Origin: an uncultured archaeon
Lineage (GTDB): Archaea; Asgardarchaeota; Heimdallarchaeia; Heimdallarchaeales; Heimdallarchaeaceae
Length of the DNA stretch: 13,322 nucleotides
Assembly: GCA_964534625.1 (NCBI GenBank)
Contig: CAZHRF010000064.1
Location: 1 to 13,322 of the forward strand
Direction of reading: 5' to 3'
In this document: positions 1 to 13,322 of the stretch, in pieces
Layout of the letters: every line of letters starts with the position of its first letter
Position numbering within the stretch: position 1 is the first letter of the stretch
The notes under the pieces: generated by a model
Told to the model about the DNA's origin: nothing
Seen by the model: only the letters and a program-made list of their open reading frames with translations
Databases searched by the model: none
Translations under genes and position numbers: made by a program

Positions 1-521
1 GACGCAACGATTGGTTGCATAAAATAACCACCCAACTAGCCGAATTGTATGATGTGGTTATCCTCGAAGACTTGAACATGAAAGGTATGCAACAATTTAG
101 TACGGGTGTTAGTAAATCGGTAACGTTAGACTTTCCATGGGGTGAGTTCGTACGGTTGTTGGAATACAAGCTCGAAGAACGGGGAAAGTATTTGGTAAAA
201 GTAGATAGATTTTTTCCTTCCAGTAAACAGTGTTCGACATGTGGATACAAACATAACGACTTACGATTATCAGACCGAGAGTGGAAGTGTCCCGTTTGTG
301 GTACATGCCATGACCGAGACGTTAACGCTTCCCGTAACGTATACTCTGAAGGATGTAGAATCCTTGAAGAGTCTGGTGTATCAATTCTACGTACTGTCGG
401 GACGACAGGAACTCTAGACGACGCTTGTGGAGAAGCGATAAGCCCTCATAGTACTAGTGATAGTACTATTGTTCTTGATTTTGAGGCTACTTCGTTGAAC
501 CAAGAAACCATCTGCCTTTAG
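1..521 (+). CDS. tnpB: IS200/IS605-family RNA-guided nuclease TnpB, C-terminal part (5' end outside window)
   Basis: Frame is open from the window edge (RNDWLHKITTQLA...). RuvC-II ILEDL, zinc ribbon CSTC...CPVC and RuvC-III HDRDVNASRN are present. Stop TAG at 519-521. Confidence 0.95.
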   Translation, partial: RNDWLHKITTQLAELYDVVILEDLNMKGMQQFSTGVSKSVTLDFPWGEFVRLLEYKLEERGKYLVKVDRFFPSSKQCSTCGYKHNDLRLSDREWKCPVCGTCHDRDVNASRNVYSEGCRILEESGVSILRTVGTTGTLDDACGEAISPHSTSDSTIVLDFEATSLNQETICL

Positions 522-1707: not shown

Positions 1708-4485
1708 ATGAAAATAGGTTTAACATATGATGATGTATTATTAGTTCCTAAAAAATCTCCTGTTAGATCTCGTAGAGAAGTGGATACTTCTACTAGATTA
1801 TCAAGAAATATCAAATTAAACATTCCCATAGTATCTTCAAATATGGATACTGTCACTGAACATGCTATGGCTATTACTATGGCTCAACAAGGAGGAATAG
1901 GAATCATTCATCGATTTATGCCAATTGAAGCACAAGTCAAAGAAGTTAATAAAGTTAAAAGATCAGAAATGATTCGTATTGATACGCCTTACTGTGTTAA
2001 ACCATGGCAAACATTAAGAGATGCTCAATCTTTTATGGACGAAAAAGATGTTTCAGGTTTGCTTGTCGTTGATAGTGATAACAAGCTTAAAGGCATTTTA
2101 ACCTCTAGAGATATGCGTTTCGAAGATAAAAAAGATGTACCTGTTAAGGATTTAATGACTACTGATCTTATTACTGCTTCACCTGATATTCACATGGAAG
2201 AAGCAAAAACTATTTTGAAAGAAAATCGTATAGAAAAATTACCGCTTATTGATGAGAGTGGGTATCTCCAAGGGCTAATTACAGCAAAAGATATCATGTT
2301 AGCTAAAAGTTTACCTAATGCTTCAAAAGATGCTAAAGGGCGACTTATTGTGGGTGCAGCTATTGGCGTAGCTGGTGATTATCTTAAACGCACAGAAGCA
2401 TTGATTAATGCTAATGTAGATGTACTAGTTTTAGATATAGCACATGGTCACTCAGATATTGCCATTAATGCGATGAAAGAAATACGAAAAAACTTTGGGG
2501 ATGTAGAATTAATAGTTGGAAATGTAGCTACAGCTGAAGGAACTAAAGAGCTTATTGAAGCAGGGGCAGATGGCATCAAGGTGGGTGTAGGACCTGGAAG
2601 TATTTGTTTTGAAAAAGATGCACTTGTAATTATGGGCGATTATTCAGTTAAAGAAATAAAAGATGTTCGAATAGGAGACCAAGTAATTACTCACAAAAAT
2701 AGAAAAAGGATCGTAACGAAAAAATACAAGCGTAAATACACAGGTAAAATACTGGAAATAAATGTAAAAGGTTCACCTGGTAAAATAAAGACAACTCCAG
2801 AACATCCCTTCTTTGCTATAACTCTAGATTCTGATGAAGAAAAAATAAAGAAATATGGATCAAAATATTATTTTGAGAAACAAAAATATAACAAAGGATT
2901 GAAATGGACGAAAGCTTCCCGTCTAAAAAAAGGAGATATTCTTGTTATCCCTAGAACAACTGTAAGAAAGGTAAAGGATAAGAAATTTGATTTAACAGAC
3001 TATTTAGATTGCCAGTTTGACGATTCAAAAGTATGGTCTACCAAAGTTGGTTTCAATCCTAATGATCAGAGCTATGAAGATTTAGCAAGTAAATTCTCTA
3101 CAACAAAAAGAATAATAGGTAATATTGTCCAAGGTGGTAAATCCGTTGATATGGAGTTAAACCATGTAGTTAATTCCTATCTGGATGATGTTCAATATCA
3201 GCGAGAAATTGAACCATTATCACTAAATCGACACATAGAACTTGATAAGGATTTAATGAAGCTCTTTGGGTATTTTATTGCAGAAGGTTATGTGTGTGGA
3301 GCTAAGAACAATAGAAGTTTACGTTTTGCCTTTTCCAGAGATGAAATAGAGTATCAACAAGAAGTAATGCAATTGGTTAAGAAGATATTTGGCTACGAAA
3401 ATTCGAAGATTAGGCATCATAAAACGAGAAATGCAACTGTCGTTAATGTTTACTCACATTACATAGCTTCATTTTTTGAACGTTTATTCCCATTAGGAGC
3501 TAAAAACAAAAAACTTCCAGAATTCTTACTCGAACAAGATACTGATAAAATAGTTAGTTTCATTAGAGGAGCAATTAACGGAGATGGGAGCATTAAAGGC
3601 AAAAAAAGAGTGACATATAAGACAGTGTCAAAAGATTTAGCATTTCAGTTTAGTGAATTATTAACTAGAGTAGGCTTCTTACCAACAATTTCTAAAGAAA
3701 AACCAAAAAACAAAAAATGGAGCAGTATATATAGAATAAATATTTCAGGTTCACAATATATTAGATTTATGAATATGGTTTATCCTGAGGTAGAAATAAG
3801 TGAATCAAAATCTGCACAACAAATATGGGCTGATGAATCGTATATTTATTTATCAATAATGAGTGTTACGTCAAAGCATAAGGAAACTGTTGTTTATAAT
3901 CTAGAAGTTGATGAGGACAATACATATTTGGTCAATAGAATTGCTGTTCATAATTGCATAACCAGACTTGTTGCGGGTGCTGGTGTTCCTCAGCTTACTG
4001 CTGTAATGGATTCTCGTGAAGTAGCCAAAGATTATGCTATCCCTCTTATCGCTGATGGTGGTATAAGAAGATCTGGCGATATAGCTAAGGCAATAGCTGC
4101 TGGGGCTGATACTGTCATGATCGGTAATTTACTAGCTGGAACAGAAGAAAGCCCAGGTACAGCTATATTGCGTAGGGGTAGTAGATATAAAATCATACGA
4201 GGTATGGCGTCTTTAGGTGCTACTTTAGGAAGAGAGGCTAAAGAAAAGAAAGGCTCATTTGATGATTTAGATCTTGATTCAGTTGTACCAGAAGGCGTTG
4301 AAGCTATGGTACCATATAGAGGAAGTGCTGTAGATATGCTTGTTCAATTAGTAGGTGGATTAAGAAGTGGTATAAGTTACTGTGGAGCCTCTTCAATCAA
4401 AGAAATGCAAAAGAACGCTGAATTTATCCGTATTACCCAAGCAGGAAAAAAAGAGTCACAAAGTCATGATGTGGAACTAGTTTAA
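1708..4485 (+). CDS. guaB: IMP dehydrogenase/GMP reductase family enzyme with CBS pair, containing an intein (925-aa precursor, 475 aa spliced); possibly a GMP reductase functionally
   Basis: [23 protein letters not shown], tandem CBS domains, DIAHGHS, GNVAT, GVGPGSI|[13 protein letters not shown] (reconstituted after intein removal), [21 protein letters not shown]. Confidence 0.92.
2605..3954 (+). mobile_element. Intein with LAGLIDADG homing endonuclease (450 aa, residues 300-749 of precursor)
   Basis: Block A CFEKDALV, block [19 protein letters not shown]-like motifs LFGYFIAEG and [10 protein letters not shown], block [13 protein letters not shown], block G VHN followed by extein Cys+1. 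Confidence 0.96.
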
Positions 4486-4514: not shown

Positions 4515-5972
4515 ATGCAAAAGAAAACCCTCGTTGGTGTAGTATTATTTAAGAATGGACAAAAAGAGCATGATATTAAATTACTAATAACCAAAGATAA
4601 AAATGTTGATTTTTTGCCTGATTTTTACGGATCATTTGTTACAGAGGTAGAAGAGCGAGATAGAGCAGTATATAAGATATTAATTCAAGGACAGGGGGAA
4701 ATTGTTCCTAATATGCTTGAACGTATTACTGCCTTTAGATTACTTTATGAAAGAGGGTTTTTTAAGAAAAAGAAAGTAAATCTAGGTAGAAATGAAAAAT
4801 TTATGACGGGAATAAAAAAGATAGACCCTATATATCTTAATCTGATCCTCCAATCATTTTTTTTATGTAGAAAACAAATAACAATCTACCAAGAATATGA
4901 ATATTTAATTAATTATTTTATTCTAATACAGTCTCCACCATATAAATTGGGTTTTTTAAATTATTTTTTGAAGAATAATAAATTAATAAAGTCCCAAAAA
5001 TTGTTGAAAAAATACTATAAAATGGAGTTTTTAGTTGAACCTTTTATTATTGAGCTTCTCAAATTTAAAAGAGAAAATGGGGTGAGTTTTTTAGAAGCTG
5101 TAAGAGCAAAAAAGATGGCTTTTACAACAAATCCAGTTGAACAATATGAAATACTACCACATATATATCGTTTTAGCGTGGTATTTCCTGCCTTTCCAAA
5201 TTTACATTCAACAAACTGTTATGTAATAGGTAATAATAAAAAATACATTATTGACCCTGGAGCAGCAAATGAAAAATATCTGACCTATTTACTCAAGTAT
5301 CTTGATAGACACAAAAAACAGCTAGAAGGGATATTGATTTCCCATGAACATAGCGAACATAGCAATTATGCCCAATTTCTTAAAAAAAGATATAACCTAC
5401 CTATTTTTGCGTCTAAACAAGCTATAAAAACCTTAGAGCCAGATATAACAGTAAATGGGTACTTAAAAGATCAACAAATAATTAATTTGGGATACTATAC
5501 GCATCTGGACGATAAAAAATGGTCTTTAAAAATCATTGAGATCAAAGGACATACTAATGGTTCCATCGGTTTTTATGATAATAGAGGAATCATGTTTACT
5601 GGGGATGCAGTGCTAAGGGAGTTAAAAGGCGTAGTAGATCCATATAGAGGAGACTTAGATGAGTATGAAAAGTCATTAAAGAAAATTCATCTATATAAAC
5701 CAAAGTTTATACTCCCAGGTCATGGCGATGTGATAACTAAAATATCAAGAGAGATACGAGAGGATAGGAAGTGCATAAAAAAGAGAAAGAAATTAATTAT
5801 TAAATGCATAAAAGAGGGAAATTCACATCCTACAGAAATCGATCAACAACTTAAACCACATTTAGATGGTAAATATAAACGATTAACTAGACTTATCCGT
5901 CATGTGTATCTACAAAACTTGGTTGAAAATAAAGAGGTACATAGACGCGGAGAAAATTATTATTTGAAGTAA
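4515..5972 (+). CDS. Metallo-beta-lactamase-fold hydrolase (LACTB2/glyoxalase II-like) with a large N-terminal extension
   Basis: TNCYVIG, IIDPG, ISHEHSEH (variant HxHxDH), GHT, FTGD, PGHG and a C-terminal winged-helix-like end. SD-like GAGGTTGA upstream; 29 nt after the guaB-like gene. Confidence 0.8.
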   Translation: MQKKTLVGVVLFKNGQKEHDIKLLITKDKNVDFLPDFYGSFVTEVEERDRAVYKILIQGQGEIVPNMLERITAFRLLYERGFFKKKKVNLGRNEKFMTGIKKIDPIYLNLILQSFFLCRKQITIYQEYEYLINYFILIQSPPYKLGFLNYFLKNNKLIKSQKLLKKYYKMEFLVEPFIIELLKFKRENGVSFLEAVRAKKMAFTTNPVEQYEILPHIYRFSVVFPAFPNLHSTNCYVIGNNKKYIIDPGAANEKYLTYLLKYLDRHKKQLEGILISHEHSEHSNYAQFLKKRYNLPIFASKQAIKTLEPDITVNGYLKDQQIINLGYYTHLDDKKWSLKIIEIKGHTNGSIGFYDNRGIMFTGDAVLRELKGVVDPYRGDLDEYEKSLKKIHLYKPKFILPGHGDVITKISREIREDRKCIKKRKKLIIKCIKEGNSHPTEIDQQLKPHLDGKYKRLTRLIRHVYLQNLVENKEVHRRGENYYLK

Positions 5973-6106: not shown

Positions 6107-6126
6107 TGTATCCTACAAGTTGAATT

Positions 6127-7575
6127 ATGCCTTTATCTATAGGTCATGATTGTAATATTAACATGTGTAGTCAAGAATGTGTGAATATATGCCCTCAAAA
6201 TAAACGAGAAAAAGAAGCAATCAGAATAAATAAAGATACACAACTAGCTGAAATTAACAAAAAGCATTGTATTGAATGCTATAGGTGTATATCTGTTTGT
6301 CCATTACAAGTAATAACCGTGAACGATGGTCATGTTTCAAAGGCTCACCGTAGAAAAAAACAAGTAGATCAAAAACAAAAAAATATTATCTTCCAAATTG
6401 ATGAAGATTCATATACTCAAATGAGTGAAAGAAATACTGTTTTTGCTAGAGTTGGCTGGGATGAGGATTTTGAGGGCTATCATAAAGGTATATTTGAGAA
6501 TGCTCATAAAAAAATCCAACAAGGAATAGATGGTTATTCTGATATAGAACTAGCAGCTGTAAAAGCATCTTGGAAGATAGAAAACATAATCACCTATATG
6601 GAAAGGCAGCAAAGACAAAAGAAGGAGAAAGAAGAGAATATTGAAAAAGCGAAAGATGGACACAAAAATCTTTCTTCAAAACCAACAGAAAACATCCATA
6701 ATGAACCATCGAATAATAAGCAAAAAAGATATTCTATTGAAGATCCAGCTAAAATGACTTGGTGGTTGAAAAAAATTGCCAAGTTTTATGGATGTGATCT
6801 TATTGGTATAACTCCTTTAGATACAAAATGGTTATATTCTGAAGATAGAACGGGAGAACCATATGACTTTCCTGAAGAATTAACCTCTGCTATTGTTATT
6901 GCTGTTCAAATGGATATAGATGCCATTAATACTACTCCAAAAATGCCTTCAGCGATTGCTACAGGACTTGGATATTCCAAAATGGCTTTTCTTAGAACAC
7001 TAATCGCTGACTTTATTGAAAATCTCGGATATCAAGCTATACCAGCTGGAAACCAAGGAGGCCTATCGGTCCCTTTATCAGTATTAGCTGGATTGGGTGG
7101 ATATGGAAGAATGGGGCTGTTAATAACTCGAGAATATGGTCCAAGAATACGAATAGCAAAAATATTGACAGATATGCCCTTAAAACCTGATGAACCCGAT
7201 TATAAGTTTATTAAAGCAGTAAAAAGATTTTGTATGACTTGTAAAACTTGTGCAGAAAGATGCCCGAGTAACTCAATCCCATTACATGACGAGCCTAACG
7301 GAAAAATTTATAGCATAAGCAATAATCCTGGAGTGAAAGATAAATTTTACGTAAATGTTGACACTTGTTATATGTTTTGGCATGAAAATGGTGTGGAGTG
7401 CTCGCGTTGCATAGCTGATTGTGAATATAATCATGAGTTTACTTTACCGCATAAAATTGTTAACTGGTTGATAATGAATGTACCATTTTTGAATAGAATT
7501 TGGCCACGAATAGGTAAATTGTTGGGGTATGGTGGTAACAAATCAGCTAAAAAGTTTTGGGAAAAATATCAATAG
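6127..7575 (+). CDS. Reductive dehalogenase (RdhA)-family cobalamin/Fe-S protein with an extra N-terminal 2x[4Fe-4S] domain
   Basis: LKKIAKFYGCDLIGIT, WLYS, AIVIAVQMD, YSKM, FIENLGYQA, PLSVLAGLGGYGRMGLLITREYGPRIRIAKILTDMPL, FCxxCxxCxxxCP and Cx10CxxCxxxC. No twin-arginine signal. Confidence 0.87.
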   Translation: MPLSIGHDCNINMCSQECVNICPQNKREKEAIRINKDTQLAEINKKHCIECYRCISVCPLQVITVNDGHVSKAHRRKKQVDQKQKNIIFQIDEDSYTQMSERNTVFARVGWDEDFEGYHKGIFENAHKKIQQGIDGYSDIELAAVKASWKIENIITYMERQQRQKKEKEENIEKAKDGHKNLSSKPTENIHNEPSNNKQKRYSIEDPAKMTWWLKKIAKFYGCDLIGITPLDTKWLYSEDRTGEPYDFPEELTSAIVIAVQMDIDAINTTPKMPSAIATGLGYSKMAFLRTLIADFIENLGYQAIPAGNQGGLSVPLSVLAGLGGYGRMGLLITREYGPRIRIAKILTDMPLKPDEPDYKFIKAVKRFCMTCKTCAERCPSNSIPLHDEPNGKIYSISNNPGVKDKFYVNVDTCYMFWHENGVECSRCIADCEYNHEFTLPHKIVNWLIMNVPFLNRIWPRIGKLLGYGGNKSAKKFWEKYQ

Positions 7576-7636: not shown

Positions 7637-8692
7637 TCATTTTTTTTGCTTTTTGTTTTTAATCAATATACTCGCCCCCTCTATAATGAAGAAGGGCACA
7701 TAGATATATGAAAAGAAAACAATCAATCTAGTGCTAAATTGATCACCTGAAGCATAAATGTCGGTAATAACCTCGCCTAATTTTATCAAAGGATATAAAG
7801 CTGTATAACCCCCATTTGTTTTATGTTCGATATCGTATCCTGACCCACCAGCTTCATAGAGGTAAGAAGCATTTCTTGATTTTAATTGTTCAAAAATGGC
7901 TTCTTCAGTAAATTCTTCTGTTTTCAATAGAGTCCAACTATAAACTGTTTCTGGATAGTGCATGTCAGTACCTGTGATCATGCCGAGATCATTATCTTTG
8001 CAAAAATCAACAGAGACTTGATCATATTCATCTTCATTAATTACTTCAATATAATCAATCCCCCAGTCCAATAATATTTCACGGGAGGGCTGGTTTCTAC
8101 AAAATCGTTCAGACCAAGGATAATGATTAAGCACCACTACACCCCCTAAAGCGTGTGTATCATTTATTATTTGCTTGATTTCATTGTCTGTAGGTGTATA
8201 TGTATAAGAACTAGTGGGAAATAACCCACCTGAAGGTAAAAAGACATCAATGTCTTCAGCAGTTAAATTTGGTGGAAAGATTAAATTTAGATGAACACGA
8301 TCGGTTGTCCATTCAACTCCAGGTAAAACTTTTATCTTGTCGTCAAATTCAGTTCTTGCTATTTCGCGTATCTTATCTATCCCTTGCAAGGTATTATGAT
8401 CCGTTAAAACCATGGCATTGAATCCCATGGCGATATGCCATTGAATATTTTGCTTAGGAGAGAGATAGCCATCACTATAATACGTATGAGAATGATGATC
8501 TAATACAATATTATATTCTGAAATATTGTAATTTGGTGTGTAAGCATAGTCATCCCATTCATTATCTGCATAAACAAACTCTGATGGAGCGAGATATGCA
8601 AACCTGATAGCTACAAATAAAAAGAACCATACCACAATATTGAAGACGAGAAAATGAATAAGAAACTGCTTTAGGTGGTTGTTCATAAACAT
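7637..8692 (-). CDS. Membrane-anchored PHP-domain metallo-phosphoesterase
   Basis: DHHSHTYYSDG, LTDHN, GVEW, NH and GTDMH are PHP motifs, with hydrophobic segments at both termini. The start could be ATG 8686. Confidence 0.85.
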   Translation of the reverse strand: MFMNNHLKQFLIHFLVFNIVVWFFLFVAIRFAYLAPSEFVYADNEWDDYAYTPNYNISEYNIVLDHHSHTYYSDGYLSPKQNIQWHIAMGFNAMVLTDHNTLQGIDKIREIARTEFDDKIKVLPGVEWTTDRVHLNLIFPPNLTAEDIDVFLPSGGLFPTSSYTYTPTDNEIKQIINDTHALGGVVVLNHYPWSERFCRNQPSREILLDWGIDYIEVINEDEYDQVSVDFCKDNDLGMITGTDMHYPETVYSWTLLKTEEFTEEAIFEQLKSRNASYLYEAGGSGYDIEHKTNGGYTALYPLIKLGEVITDIYASGDQFSTRLIVFFSYIYVPFFIIEGASILIKNKKQKK

Positions 8693-9144: not shown

Positions 9145-9651
9145 TTATTTCCAAGCCATTTCAAATCTGTGTACGTCGCCCACAGTCTCTGCTTTCATAG
9201 ATTTAAGATTATTTCCAAACATTCGAATTATACCTGTAAGATATCCTTCGATTAATGAGCTTGGTTGTATTTTTCCAGCTTCAATAATTGCATGTCCTTC
9301 TTCATATTCTATTGTGCGTGGGGGGTCTCTAGGCGGTGTGTCTTTTACGAATGCACCAAAGAATTTACCATAATCCTTTAGTATTGAATCTGCTGAAGAA
9401 TAACCTTGAGCTTGAAATGATTCCTTTGACTTTGTAACAATCTTTGTACCGACGCTTTTTGTAACTATATCACCCAATCGATTTGAAATTGCAGTAACTA
9501 TTTCACAATATTCATCCCAAGAGTACCATTTATTACCATCCATCTGATCTACTTTTTCTTTATATTCAGGAAAAATGACTTCAGCTGACAACAATGAATT
9601 CACGACAAATTTAAAAAATTGTCCGTATAATTTACCTGGCAATTTATTCAC
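9145..9651 (-). CDS. Hypothetical 168-aa protein, possible V4R/H-NOX-like small ligand-binding fold
   Basis: GTG start with a TATA box at suitable spacing. The pattern 'KWYS..EY', 'VG..I', 'P..LIEGYLTG' and terminal 'FEMAW' resembles V4R/H-NOX-like proteins; the fold is inferred. Confidence 0.6.
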   Translation of the reverse strand: MNKLPGKLYGQFFKFVVNSLLSAEVIFPEYKEKVDQMDGNKWYSWDEYCEIVTAISNRLGDIVTKSVGTKIVTKSKESFQAQGYSSADSILKDYGKFFGAFVKDTPPRDPPRTIEYEEGHAIIEAGKIQPSSLIEGYLTGIIRMFGNNLKSMKAETVGDVHRFEMAWK

Positions 9652-9909: not shown

Positions 9910-11103
9910 ATGGTAAATAAAGGCAAATTTGACATTGAAATAGAGAGTGATAAAGGGAAAGAAGATATTTTATCATTTATTAATAATCATAATTTTAATT
10001 TTAAATTAGAAGATGAAGAGAGAATAATCGAAAGATTACGATTTATTGCACGTAAAAACAATTTTAAGAATTTTGAGGAGCTTCTTAGTCTCTTTAAGAA
10101 GGACAAGGGTGTAGTTGATGATACGTTAGAATTTCTGAATAAAGGGGTTATATATAATCAAAAAACTGGTGATTTTTCGCCTTTAATCAAAAGAAAAAAG
10201 TCAATTCAAGATTATGTTGATGATAAAAGAGAACCCAAAAAAAAGAAAAAGAAAAAACGAAGAAGAAGGATTATTAATTCCCCCCAACAATCAGTTATTT
10301 TTAACAATCCTACTGATACAGAGAATATTAATCGAATTCTTCGTATAATGGAAAAACACAACATCAATCATGAAGTGTATAAAACAAGTTATCTAATGAG
10401 AAGATTACATCACAGAATGAGAAGACTAAATATTGATCGTTACTATGATTATGCTAGATATCTTGAAACTGATTTAAATGAGTCTAGTCATTTACACAAA
10501 AGCCTTTCTATAAATGTTACCCGTTTTTTTCGTAATAAAGATATGTACGAGATTCTTCGCGACTCTGTTCTCTCTGAAGTTTTCGAATTCAAAGGTTCCA
10601 TTAAAATATGGAGTGCAGGGTGTGCTGTGGGGTGTGAACCCTATTCGGTTGCCATGCTAATAGATCGGCATTTTAATGAAAAAGATAAAAGAAGAGTGAG
10701 TATTACTGCTTCAGATATAAGTTATGAGTTTATAGACAAAGCGAGAGAAGGACTATTTGGAAAAGATTTACTTAAAGAAACAGATAAACTATATCTTTTG
10801 AAGTATTTTCAGCTTAGAGGTGAAAAATATCGCATATCTCCCACTCTGAGTAGATACATCCACTTTAGAACACATGATTTACAAGTTAAGCCACCAATTA
10901 TTAATTTGAATCTTATTCTGTGTAGGAATGTACTTATCTACTTTTCGAAAGAACAAAGCAAAGAATTATTCGTAAATCTCGCTAATGTGTTAAAACCAGG
11001 TGGTTTTCTTATCCTCGGTAAATCAGAAATTATGCGTGGGGCTGTTCGAGACGAGTTTGAAGTTTACGATGCAAACACTAGAATATATCGAAAAATTGTA
11101 TGA
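9910..11103 (+). CDS. cheR: Protein-glutamate O-methyltransferase CheR with N-terminal extension
   Basis: YK..YLMRRL..RM, SINVTRFFRN, IWSAGCAVGCEPYS, ASDIS, LILCRNVLIYF, LKPGGFLILGKSE. Confidence 0.95.
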   Translation: MVNKGKFDIEIESDKGKEDILSFINNHNFNFKLEDEERIIERLRFIARKNNFKNFEELLSLFKKDKGVVDDTLEFLNKGVIYNQKTGDFSPLIKRKKSIQDYVDDKREPKKKKKKKRRRRIINSPQQSVIFNNPTDTENINRILRIMEKHNINHEVYKTSYLMRRLHHRMRRLNIDRYYDYARYLETDLNESSHLHKSLSINVTRFFRNKDMYEILRDSVLSEVFEFKGSIKIWSAGCAVGCEPYSVAMLIDRHFNEKDKRRVSITASDISYEFIDKAREGLFGKDLLKETDKLYLLKYFQLRGEKYRISPTLSRYIHFRTHDLQVKPPIINLNLILCRNVLIYFSKEQSKELFVNLANVLKPGGFLILGKSEIMRGAVRDEFEVYDANTRIYRKIV

Positions 11104-11124
11104 AATTACGTAAGAGTGATTTAA

Positions 11125-12231
11125 ATGGAAACTAAAAAAGAAATAAAAGTGTTTATTATTGATGATTCAGCCCTTTTTAGGCAATATTTAACTGAAGTAA
11201 TTGAAAAACATGGACAACAAATACGCGTAGTAGGATCCGCACCTAATGGAAAAGTAGCTCTTAACAAATTAAGCATAGAAAAATATGAATCAGATTTAGT
11301 TATTGTCGACATGGTTATGCCTGAAATGAACGGTGTGGAAGTAATAAATGAAATCATGAAAAATGATCCTTTACCTATTATTGCTATTTCAGCTTTTAAA
11401 AGTAAAGAAGAAGTAAACAAAGCATTTAACCAAATGGGCTTGGAATTATTTGAATCTGGTGCAGTAGAATTTTTGGAAAAACCTCTTAGTAGTAAAAAAA
11501 AGGATAAAACACGCTTTGAATCTCATCTAATAAAAACCATCATAGCTCACTCAAATATCAATCTGATAAGTTCTTTTACAAAATATAGAAAACCGTTACC
11601 TGAGGAAGAAAGAAAATCTACAGTTCAAACTATAGAATTAGACTGTACCCGAGTAGCTCCCGATAACCAACGGTTAATTGTTATTGGTGCATCAACAGGT
11701 GGTCCTAAAGCTATTTCATTTTTACTTTCACAATTGGGTGCCAAACATCCCCCCATTATTATCATACAACATATGCCTGAAGCAATGATGAAAACTTGGT
11801 CACGAAACCTAAAAAACAGGTATAAATCACTAAATATTCAATTAGCTAAAACGAATAATGGATTACGACCAAATCACATTTATGTTGTTCCTGGTGGGGT
11901 GCATTGTGATGTTGTTGAGGGCAATCGTCTTAAATTGTGGGCTGGTGAAAAAATAAATTATGTTGCTCCTTCAATTGATGTTACACTGAAATCAGCAGCA
12001 AGAATATATGGTTCTAATATACTGGCTTTAGTTTTAACCGGTATGGGACATGATGGAATGGACGGATGTCGAGCTGTAAAAGCTAATGGTGGAGTTGTTT
12101 TTACTGAAGATGAAACGACGAGTGTGATCCACTCAATGCCTCAAGCTATTATTGAAAATAATTTGGCAGATAAAATTGTTCCATTGCATAAGATACCTGC
12201 GGTTCTCAGAATAAATAAATGGACAACTTAA
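11125..12231 (+). CDS. cheB: Chemotaxis response regulator protein-glutamate methylesterase CheB
   Basis: Receiver domain (IIDDS, IVDMVMPEMNG, EKP) plus esterase triad motifs GASTGG, QHMP and LTGMGHDG. SD-like GAGTGAT upstream; 21 nt after cheR. Confidence 0.96.
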   Translation: METKKEIKVFIIDDSALFRQYLTEVIEKHGQQIRVVGSAPNGKVALNKLSIEKYESDLVIVDMVMPEMNGVEVINEIMKNDPLPIIAISAFKSKEEVNKAFNQMGLELFESGAVEFLEKPLSSKKKDKTRFESHLIKTIIAHSNINLISSFTKYRKPLPEEERKSTVQTIELDCTRVAPDNQRLIVIGASTGGPKAISFLLSQLGAKHPPIIIIQHMPEAMMKTWSRNLKNRYKSLNIQLAKTNNGLRPNHIYVVPGGVHCDVVEGNRLKLWAGEKINYVAPSIDVTLKSAARIYGSNILALVLTGMGHDGMDGCRAVKANGGVVFTEDETTSVIHSMPQAIIENNLADKIVPLHKIPAVLRINKWTT

Positions 12232-12281: not shown

Positions 12282-13322
12282 TCAGGATAGTAACTTATGA
12301 ATATTTGTTAATAATTCATTTTTTGAAAAAGGTTTTTGGAGAAATGCATCAATGTCTTGGGAAACTTCATTCATATACCCACTAATTACTATGATTGGTA
12401 TTTTCTTATGATATGGCTTATTTTTTATTGATTCGATTAATTCTTTTCCATCCATTATAGGCATCATTATATCAGTAATTATAAGTGAAAAATCAAAATC
12501 ATGTTCCAATAAAGAAAGTGCTTCCTGACCGTTTTTTGCGTCTATAACCTCATACCCATCGTTTTCAAGCATGGTTTTAATTAATAAACGGATATCATCA
12601 TTATCGTCAACAAGTAGAATTTTTTGATACTCTTTTTTCTTTTGTGTGTTAACACCAATTTTTTCCGTATTTCTAAATTTTATTGAAGAAGAATAAGTTG
12701 GTAAATATATATTGGCGCAGGTACCTTCATTAACCTCACTTTCGACATGAATATATCCTTTGTTTTGTCTGACAATACCATATGCTTGAGCTAATCCTAA
12801 TCCATAATGATTAGCTTTTGTTGTAAAAAAAGGCTCAAAAATATATTCTAGTACATTATCATCCATTCCTATACCTTCATCACTTATTTGTATATGTATA
12901 TAGAAACCATGTTCAATATCAACTATTTCATGATCTTTAACGTTTTTATAGTTAACCAGATCAATAGTGACATAAATGGTTGACGCTTTTTCTAGAGCCT
13001 CAGAGGCATTTCTTATAAGACTAAACATTAATTCATGTAATTGAGAGGAATCAATTAATAAAAAAGCTAAAGGTATTTTAGAACGTACTTGGATTTTTTC
13101 GATCATAGGGAATTTTAATAATGGAATAAAATCATCCAAAAAAGTATTAATCTCAATTACTTCAGTTTTATAAAAACTCTTTTGACTGAAATTCAGAATT
13201 TTTTGAATAAGTTCATGACCTTTATTTGTATTTCTTAAAATCATTGATAACAAATGACTATTTTCAGAACAACAGTCACTTTTTTTAATGATTTCAGTCG
13301 CACCAGATATAACTGAAAAAAT
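12282..13322 (-). CDS. Hybrid sensor histidine kinase/response regulator (HisKA-HATPase-REC), 5' end outside window
   Basis: Frame is open to the edge (...IFSVISGATEII..., the helix following an H-box). N box LIRNASEA, G1 ISDEGIGM, F box IFEPFFTTK, G2 GLGLA, receiver LLVDD / ITDIMMPIMDG / QKP. Confidence 0.93.
   Translation of the reverse strand: MFSVISGATEIIKKSDCCSENSHLLSMILRNTNKGHELIQKILNFSQKSFYKTEVIEINTFLDDFIPLLKFPMIEKIQVRSKIPLAFLLIDSSQLHELMFSLIRNASEALEKASTIYVTIDLVNYKNVKDHEIVDIEHGFYIHIQISDEGIGMDDNVLEYIFEPFFTTKANHYGLGLAQAYGIVRQNKGYIHVESEVNEGTCANIYLPTYSSSIKFRNTEKIGVNTQKKKEYQKILLVDDNDDIRLLIKTMLENDGYEVIDAKNGQEALSLLEHDFDFSLIITDIMMPIMDGKELIESIKNKPYHKKIPIIVISGYMNEVSQDIDAFLQKPFSKNELLTNIHKLLS

Follow-up and report, generated by a model that had tools for sequence, protein, structure and literature searches.

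How does a reductive dehalogenase obtain its electrons when it appears to have neither an export signal nor a membrane partner? The question is raised by one gene in a 13,322-nucleotide stretch of DNA (hereafter the window) from an uncultured archaeon of the family Heimdallarchaeaceae (GenBank assembly GCA_964534625.1, contig CAZHRF010000064.1). The gene, an uninterrupted open reading frame (ORF) of 482 codons, encodes a protein in which an N-terminal domain with motifs for two [4Fe-4S] clusters is fused to the core of a reductive dehalogenase (RdhA), and the four cluster-type motifs take up 16 of its 17 cysteines (Table 1). A preliminary description of this DNA, made from the sequence alone, had likened the N-terminal domain (N-domain) to that of the ribosome-recycling factor ABCE1 (RLI) and had proposed that it serves as a built-in electron entry port; the ORF and its motifs lie where that description had placed them. 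Our analysis leads to a reading that we hold to be probable, though well short of certain, namely that the protein is a cytoplasmic corrinoid/Fe-S reductive dehalogenase of the PceA lineage, in which an ABCE1-like 2x[4Fe-4S] domain, occupying the place of the Tat (twin-arginine translocation) leader in respiratory enzymes, would act as the electron feed. The host genome (3.37 Mb in 120 contigs, 89.8% complete, 32% G+C) has one rdhA gene, as determined by a six-frame genome search (TIGR02486, 165.8 bits).

Judged by its sequence, the core is a bona fide RdhA of the PceA lineage, because it exceeds the curated cut-off of the family model, finds PceA as its best match in both sequence and structure searches of solved proteins, and retains the catalytic triad and the cluster motifs. 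The NCBIfam reductive dehalogenase model TIGR02486 matched residues 243-469 with 177.7 bits (cut-off 160.35). When the C-terminal 283 residues were compared with the sequences of the Protein Data Bank (PDB), two PceA enzymes ranked first, those of Desulfitobacterium (8q4h, E = 2.9e-49) and S. multivorans (4uqu, E = 4.7e-45), followed by NpRdhA (E = 3e-17) and QueG (E = 6e-6). The same ranking of relatives was obtained by Foldseek with the full-length AlphaFold2 (AF2) model, which was built from 67 homologues and reached a mean pLDDT (predicted local distance difference test) of 90.7 and a predicted template modelling (TM) score of 0.79: chain 8q4h_A was found at E = 2.6e-27 with TM-scores of 0.63/0.60, and QueG at E = 5e-8. 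Y283, N309 and R342 map to Tyr246, Asn272 and Arg305 of PceA, the first block of the alignment to 4uqu being free of gaps, and all three are invariant across the 67-sequence alignment, as are the eight cysteines of the two core clusters (C369/372/375/379 and C414/425/428/432).

Two other assignments of the core were considered and rejected. QueG belongs to the same superfamily and likewise combines B12 with two [4Fe-4S] clusters; the window protein, however, scored only 42.1 bits against the NCBIfam QueG model TIGR00276, whose cut-off is 200, and QueG ranked low in the PDB and Foldseek searches, so that the preliminary description was right to call the core an RdhA and not an epoxyqueuosine reductase. 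An enzyme of the catabolic NpRdhA type is disfavoured by clade (E = 3e-17, as against 3e-49 for PceA) and by domain content, since the domain scan of the 482-residue protein revealed neither a vestigial second B12 domain nor a C-terminal NAD(P)H reductase module.

The enzyme is probably cytoplasmic and soluble, a judgement that we make jointly with the reading as a whole and that draws on several checks pointing the same way. There is no RR pair within the first 60 residues of the protein, and no transmembrane helix was predicted, the highest 19-residue Kyte-Doolittle mean being 1.34. The reading frame cannot extend further upstream, given the in-frame TGA at 6121-6123, and the cysteines of the Fe-S domain begin already at residue 9. 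At the level of the genome, a search of the 89.8%-complete assembly yielded no TatC (PF00902), and Tat export thus seems to be absent. No adjacent rdhB is present, as neither the 154-bp gap upstream nor the 61-bp gap downstream, beyond which the next gene lies on the opposite strand, holds an ORF of rdhB size; a distant rdhB was not searched for. The absence of a Tat signal and of a neighbouring rdhB, both asserted in the preliminary description, is hence borne out.

Both the sequence profiles and the fold comparison place the N-domain closest to the Fe-S domain of ABCE1/RLI and not to generic ferredoxins. The Cx4Cx3Cx3CP and CxxCxxCxxxCP spacings noted in the preliminary description are exact in the translation, and not one of the eight cysteines is replaced in any of 41 homologues whose identity to the window protein is only 20-74%, which indicates that the motif pattern is under selection and did not arise by chance. 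The best NCBIfam match of the N-domain is the RLI/ABCE1 model, with residues 8-65 aligned to profile positions 11-68 (E = 6e-10), and this model is the top family for 41/41 members of the family (best E = 1e-14, next families about 1e-8). The match is confined to those positions of the 592-position model; the twin ABC nucleotide-binding domains and the hinge of ABCE1 are not present. The scan for RLI and Fer4 domains proposed earlier thus had a mixed outcome, in that the Pfam model Fer4_RLI (PF04068) gave no match on the window protein at E <= 1, Pfam showing generic Fer4 families only, although it matched 5 of the 41 relatives at E < 0.01 (best 2.7e-8). When the profile of the whole domain was compared with the PDB, polyferredoxins ranked first, but only through the summing of many repeats; the best match over a single stretch was ABCE1 (6tmf_d, 57 bits over positions 4-65), with small stand-alone ferredoxins at 33-39 bits.

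The relation is most specific in the first half-domain, for which a profile of 45 positions was made that leaves out the generic CxxCxxCxxxCP motif. A search of 1.84 billion representative proteins with this profile gave 98 matches at E <= 1e-3, which we sorted by BLAST against the ABCE1 of the same genome and the window RdhA. They consist of proteins of the fused RdhA family, some of them fragments, of ABCE1 proteins, either full-length (552-630 residues) or N-terminal fragments continuing into the ABCE1 ATPase domain, and of six repetitive proteins that match in short repeated stretches only; no generic ferredoxin was significant. In the PDB, all 11 sequences matched at E <= 1 are ABCE1/Rli1 from archaea, yeast and mammals. 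Within the host genome, where ABCE1 sits apart from rdhA (G000:C5:87118-88941) and has the same CX4CX3CX3CP spacing, the N-domain and ABCE1 are reciprocal best domain matches: the best foreign domain for the family profile is ABCE1 (39.8 bits, next 27.9), and the best match of the ABCE1 Fe-S profile outside ABCE1 itself is the RdhA N-domain (45.4 bits, next 32.7). Structural comparison agrees, with query-normalised TM-scores of 0.72-0.77 for ABCE1 Fe-S domains (root-mean-square deviation 1.5-2.1 A, 30-33% identity) and of 0.45-0.68 for ferredoxins, a ranking to be used with caution as it was obtained from an AF2 model of the isolated domain with a pLDDT of 59 and as all Foldseek E-values exceeded 0.001.

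Shared features extend beyond the cysteines. In addition to the CX4CX3CX3CP + CX2CX2CX3CP spacing of the ABCE1/Rli1 Fe-S domain (PF04068 plus Fer4; 6tmf, 3j16, 3bk7), the two domains have in common a leading beta-strand, a tendency towards C-x-P-x-x-C, a Glu before the third Cys, and a CP followed by a basic or Gly-Lys stretch and a beta-strand. The window protein differs from ABCE1 in that no ABC ATPase domains follow the Fe-S domain, in that Fer4_RLI fails to match it, and in that the surface corresponding to the uS12 contact is modelled against the dehalogenase core.

Modelling offers a suggestion as to what the N-domain does. In the full-length AF2 model it was predicted with a pLDDT of 89-96, compared with 59 when folded alone. 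When residues 1-70 were presented as a partner to the core (residues 85-482), with four [4Fe-4S] ligands included, the predicted complex reached an ipSAE (interaction prediction score from aligned errors) of 0.64, whereas the best of three controls scored 0.00. A score of 0.64 is attained by 58/80 solved complexes and by 2/110 mismatched pairs, counts that are approximate here since own alignments and ligands were used. At least 75% of the contacts recur between runs, with a partner pLDDT of 86 or more. The modelled interface brings residues 23, 26-27, 29 and 49-56 of the N-domain, which surround the cluster bound by C48/C51/C54/C22, against core residues 377-382, 417, 420 and 427, which surround C375/C379 and C414/C425/C428. 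The models thereby support docking of the N-domain on the cluster loops of the core, consistent with a four-cluster wire; as cluster loops placed face to face have the geometry of an electron-transfer chain, such a wire is supported, if not demonstrated, and it is from this modelled docking that the earlier idea of a built-in entry port draws its support.

We infer from these models and from the conserved residues how the enzyme might work. Two [4Fe-4S] clusters would be held by the eight invariant cysteines of the N-domain, which would pack on the cluster surface of the core such that the C48/C51/C54/C22 cluster faces the loops C375-C379 and C425-C428. The resulting four-cluster wire could carry low-potential electrons from a soluble donor, for example a ferredoxin or a partner of the hydrogenase/oxidoreductase kind, to the corrinoid, where Tyr283, Asn309 and Arg342 would support the reductive removal of halide from a substrate that is probably aromatic. 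It should be noted that four points weigh against this scheme. Ferredoxin-like domains resting on Fe-S domains are common in solved oxidoreductases, and the docking score may in part reflect the memory of the model. On the ribosome, the Fe-S domain of ABCE1 serves a mechanical purpose, and it is not documented in electron transfer (PMC7196836). No conserved gene for a redox partner lies beside rdhA across the Heimdallarchaeaceae, LC3-type Heimdall, Hodarchaeales and Thorarchaeota loci. Finally, CobS (PF02654) could not be detected in the genome (89.8% complete), so that the corrinoid would need to be salvaged as complete cobamides.

The ABCE1 likeness itself can be read in another manner, to which we assign a real but clearly smaller probability: the N-domain could represent an archaeal 2x[4Fe-4S] ferredoxin subtype that also includes the ABCE1 Fe-S domain and segments of DmsB/TtrB-like proteins, the likeness then being due to common ancestry of the subtype or to recruitment from a polyferredoxin, and not to exaptation of a translation factor; the built-in ferredoxin function would be the same. 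The motif spacing is indeed not exclusive to ABCE1. The host genome encodes a 143-residue DmsB/TtrB-like four-cluster ferredoxin with the C-x4-C-x3-C-x3-CP motif in a very similar context, which scored 61.3 (E = 3e-11) against the family profile in hhalign, compared with 70.2 (E = 3e-14) for the ABCE1 domain of the same genome, and with the half-domain profile it scored slightly above that ABCE1 (25.3 versus 23.3 bits). The failure of Fer4_RLI on the window protein and on most of its relatives points in the same direction, as does a maximum-likelihood tree of 80 Fe-S domains (RdhA N-domains, ABCE1 and ferredoxins of the host genome; 68 columns), in which 46/77 branches were without resolution, so that derivation from ABCE1 and from a common archaeal ferredoxin subtype could not be told apart. 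Against this alternative, no such polyferredoxin was recovered at E <= 1e-3 among the 1.84 billion proteins, where about 70 ABCE1 sequences were; the half-domain matches in the PDB are ABCE1/Rli1 only; with the full domain, ABCE1 leads by 12-24 bits whichever way the comparison is run; and the deepest fused branches (P0043 and P0132) are the most ABCE1-like and match Fer4_RLI. The ABCE1-type classification of the preliminary description consequently stands as a statement of closest relationship, while the spacing on which it was founded is shared more widely and descent from a translation factor is not demonstrable from the domain phylogeny.

Accepting the relationship to ABCE1 does not by itself settle the function of the domain. 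It might be a structural, sensing or partner-docking module without a relay role, its clusters stabilising the fold or reporting oxygen or redox state while electrons reach the core clusters directly. The mechanical role of the ABCE1 domain (PMC7196836) would suit this idea, and the existence of unfused RdhAs of 350-410 residues in Asgard archaea and Bathyarchaeia indicates that the core is not strictly dependent on the N-domain, but we consider it unlikely: the predicted interface sets cluster-binding loops face to face, the eight cysteines have stayed invariant over deep divergence, and the enzyme is without an RdhB/quinol route or any other built-in donor. A membrane-associated, quinone-dependent respiratory dehalogenase, in which the additional domain opens further routes for electrons from the quinone pool, has been suggested for related proteins (PMC12219181) and would accord with a core that is nearest, phylogenetically and structurally, to quinone-dependent PceA types. 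We regard it as highly unlikely here, given that a Tat motif, a transmembrane segment and room for an upstream extension are missing, that TatC was not found and no rdhB is adjacent, and that the gene occurs as a single copy per genome, unlike the situation in typical organohalide respirers.

A more radical proposal, and in our view a barely tenable one, is that the N-domain retains docking on the small ribosomal subunit or RNA and that the enzyme is a B12-dependent reductase of a ribosome- or RNA-linked substrate, not an organohalide enzyme. QueG, of the same superfamily, acts on tRNA. Such a role could be argued from the ABCE1 relation and from a gene that is near-universal and syntenic in its lineage, and it can be examined at the level of single residues. 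In the archaeal post-splitting complex, the ABCE1 Fe-S domain touches rRNA via R2, K15, N17, E19 and K59 and the protein uS12 via P25, R28 and S29 (PMC7196836; numbering as in S. solfataricus). Mapped through the alignment of the half-domain profile to the PDB, the window protein keeps E17 (for E19), P23 (for P25) and the basic residue K26 (for R28), whereas P2, M13 and a non-basic residue replace R2, K15 and K59. Furthermore, the equivalents of the uS12 patch (residues 23, 26, 27 and 29) are modelled against the RdhA core and would be buried. The loss of the rRNA-contact equivalents and the position of the uS12 patch make a ribosome-docking role unlikely, and the PceA-type active site is intact. 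We therefore return to the reading in which the ABCE1-like domain would feed electrons to a PceA-lineage dehalogenase.

Compared with known systems, the window protein is, on sequence grounds, a further member of an Asgard fused RdhA family that is itself known from sequence. Manoharan et al. (2019) described Thorarchaeota RdhAs with an additional N-terminal 4Fe-4S domain, in which TAT signals and B proteins are missing, PceA is the nearest characterised enzyme and Tyr246/Arg305/Asn272 are conserved (PMC6737245). More recently, a cold-seep study in Microbiome (2025) reported complete N-terminal 4Fe-4S ferredoxin domains in 5/11 RdhA-like proteins of Heimdallarchaeia, and speculated on extra electron paths from the quinone pool (PMC12219181). 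The window protein agrees with these in its N-terminal Fe-S domain followed by a two-cluster RdhA core, in the lack of TAT and RdhB and in the conserved triad, and its identity to proteins that NCBI lists as 'reductive dehalogenase [Candidatus Heimdallarchaeaceae archaeon]' is 53-62%. The preliminary description, which did not know the architecture as characterised, overstated the case in this respect, the fusion having been published; a grouping of the N-domain with generic ferredoxins, which the description had also named as a sign against its reading, was not seen. In the published Asgard papers the domain is called generic 4Fe-4S (pfam00037) or ferredoxin, with no link to ABCE1, and we found no paper in the literature searched that connects a dehalogenase with ABCE1 or RNase L inhibitor; within that literature, the ABCE1 relation of the RdhA N-domain thus appears to be unpublished.

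With PceA (4uqu, and the Desulfitobacterium PceA2B2 complex 8q4h) the protein shares the corrinoid/Fe-S core fold, both core cluster motifs and the Tyr/Asn/Arg equivalents. PceA, however, is exported by Tat and is anchored or fed by PceB and menaquinol, whereas the window protein lacks Tat and an adjacent rdhB and has 66 extra N-terminal residues, with two more predicted clusters, as well as a Lys/Glu-rich insertion. A different parallel is provided by the catabolic, self-sufficient RdhAs (NpRdhA, 4ras/6zy1, and relatives with a C-terminal NAD(P)H-ferredoxin reductase module), which are cytoplasmic and without Tat or RdhB and in which, as proposed here, an electron-supply module is fused to the catalytic subunit. 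They differ in that the module of the window protein is N-terminal and consists of Fe-S clusters only, with no flavin/NAD(P)H domain, and in belonging to another clade with a vestigial second B12 domain. The modest gain of the present analysis is the quantitative link to ABCE1, the predicted interface and the single-origin distribution described below. No new category is opened, as the fusion was already published and its function is still only predicted; the protein is nonetheless a rare example of an otherwise ABCE1-restricted module in a redox enzyme, and the modelled docking could provide a testable model of electron supply to a cytoplasmic dehalogenase that relies on neither RdhB, quinol nor an NAD(P)H module.

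One RdhA homologue without Tat signal is present in nearly all Asgard archaea, and it is in the Heimdall and Thor lineages that the additional two-cluster domain is attached to it. From sequence comparison, the fusion is apparently conserved, usually as a single copy, and of single origin in Asgard archaea. Full-length fused homologues (465-493 residues, 47-85% identity) occur in Heimdallarchaeaceae, Hodarchaeales and other Heimdall metagenome-assembled genomes (MAGs), and the Thorarchaeota versions are about 39% identical, the Pro that follows the fourth Cys being lost in them; the N-domain is missing from shorter forms (350-410 residues) of Bathyarchaeia, Jordarchaeia and other Asgard groups. 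Across the phylum a homologue at E <= 1e-20 is found in 262/400 genomes, mostly as a single copy. For the family Heimdallarchaeaceae the figure is 24/30 genomes, and every full-length match listed starts at query residues 4-9 and hence includes the N-domain. A tree of the core alone unites the fused sequences, the window protein among them, in a single group (39/39; Shimodaira-Hasegawa-like approximate likelihood ratio test 81), the sole exception in it being an N-terminally truncated fragment, as would be expected if the fusion had happened once. Upstream of the rdhA of the unfused sister P0042 there is no gene for a separate N-domain. The 78-residue P0113, encoded close to the end of a contig behind the usual metallo-beta-lactamase (MBL) gene, is likely to represent a truncated rdhA and not a free ferredoxin.

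Table 1. Positions of the features discussed, given in window coordinates except for the last row
Feature	Position	Strand	Basis or remark
Whole gene: N-terminal 2x[4Fe-4S] domain fused to RdhA core	6127..7575	+	482 residues plus stop; full-length homologues of 465-493 residues in Heimdall and Thor MAGs
In-frame TGA directly 5' of the ATG	6121..6123	+	Rules out a hidden Tat leader
ABCE1/RLI-like 2x[4Fe-4S] domain, residues 1-66	6127..6324	+	NCBIfam RLI model, pLDDT, TM-scores
First cluster motif C9-x4-C14-x3-C18-x3-C22-P23	6151..6195	+	Translation, alignment, half-domain profile
Second cluster motif C48-x2-C51-x2-C54-x3-C58-P59	6268..6303	+	Residues 49-56 in the modelled interface with the core
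Basic linker, residues 67-89	6325..6393	+	Residues 68-79 of low confidence; 72-88 modelled as helix
RdhA catalytic core, residues 90-482, PceA-like fold	6394..7572	+	TIGR02486; PDB 8q4h; Foldseek 8q4h_A
Lys/Glu-rich insertion, about residues 150-205	6574..6741	+	Long helix, then low-confidence loop; variable among homologues
Y283, equivalent of PceA catalytic Tyr246	6973..6975	+	Alignment to 4uqu
N309, equivalent of PceA Asn272	7051..7053	+	Alignment to 4uqu
R342, equivalent of PceA Arg305	7150..7152	+	Alignment to 4uqu
Core cluster motif C369-x2-C372-x2-C375-x3-C379-P380	7231..7266	+	Residues 377-382 in the modelled interface with the N-domain
Core second-cluster cysteines C414, C425, C428, C432	7366..7422	+	Residues 417, 420 and 427 in the modelled interface
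MBL-fold protein gene, 485 residues, upstream of rdhA	4515..5972	+	Conserved neighbour of fused rdhA in Heimdallarchaeaceae
DmsB/TtrB-like ferredoxin, 143 residues	L006:1378-1809 (G000:C76)	-	Same C-x4-C-x3-C-x3-CP motif

The genes around rdhA offer some hints as to its context. In Heimdallarchaeaceae the order is epimerase, inosine monophosphate dehydrogenase (IMPDH), MBL-fold protein and rdhA. The MBL-fold protein has its Lactamase_B domain at residues 231-403, preceded by an N-terminal extension of about 230 residues without family match, and its gene immediately precedes the fused rdhA, in the same orientation, in the window, at two other fused loci (L012 and L014) and on the P0113 contig; this synteny may reflect an operon or merely close kinship. 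In an LC3-type Heimdall genome (MDVS01000150) a gene for an aromatic amino-acid ammonia-lyase (PF00221; L017:4337-5857, +) is directly upstream of the fused rdhA, and at L012 and L014 genes for formiminotransferase-cyclodeaminase and a DUF72 gene follow a few genes downstream. These neighbours are a possible hint at a link with histidine or aromatic amino-acid catabolism. In Thorarchaeota a divergently transcribed cluster lies beside the fused rdhA (L015:4902-7841 and L019:2920-5857), encoding a PAS sensor, a 2x[4Fe-4S] ferredoxin of 107-127 residues, an acyl-CoA dehydrogenase and a nitroreductase.

Several other genes lie in the window. Directly 3' of rdhA, at 7637-8692 (-), is a gene for a PHP-domain/CehA-McbA-like metallohydrolase with hydrophobic N- and C-terminal segments, which L012 and L014 lack at the corresponding place. 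Further along, a CheR-CheB pair (9910-12231, +, and 12282-13322, -) is accompanied by no other che genes in the window and has as neighbours a hybrid histidine kinase/receiver and a 168-residue ORF (9145-9651, -) without family match. On the other side of rdhA, the IMPDH/GuaB-family gene (1708-4485, +) encodes 925 residues with a large intein-like insertion, while its orthologues in L012 and L014 are free of the insertion and have 478-482 residues. At 3-521 (+) the window start truncates a gene for a TnpB/Cas12f-like protein, of which the C-terminal region remains (Cas12f1-like TNB domain, E = 2.6e-25).

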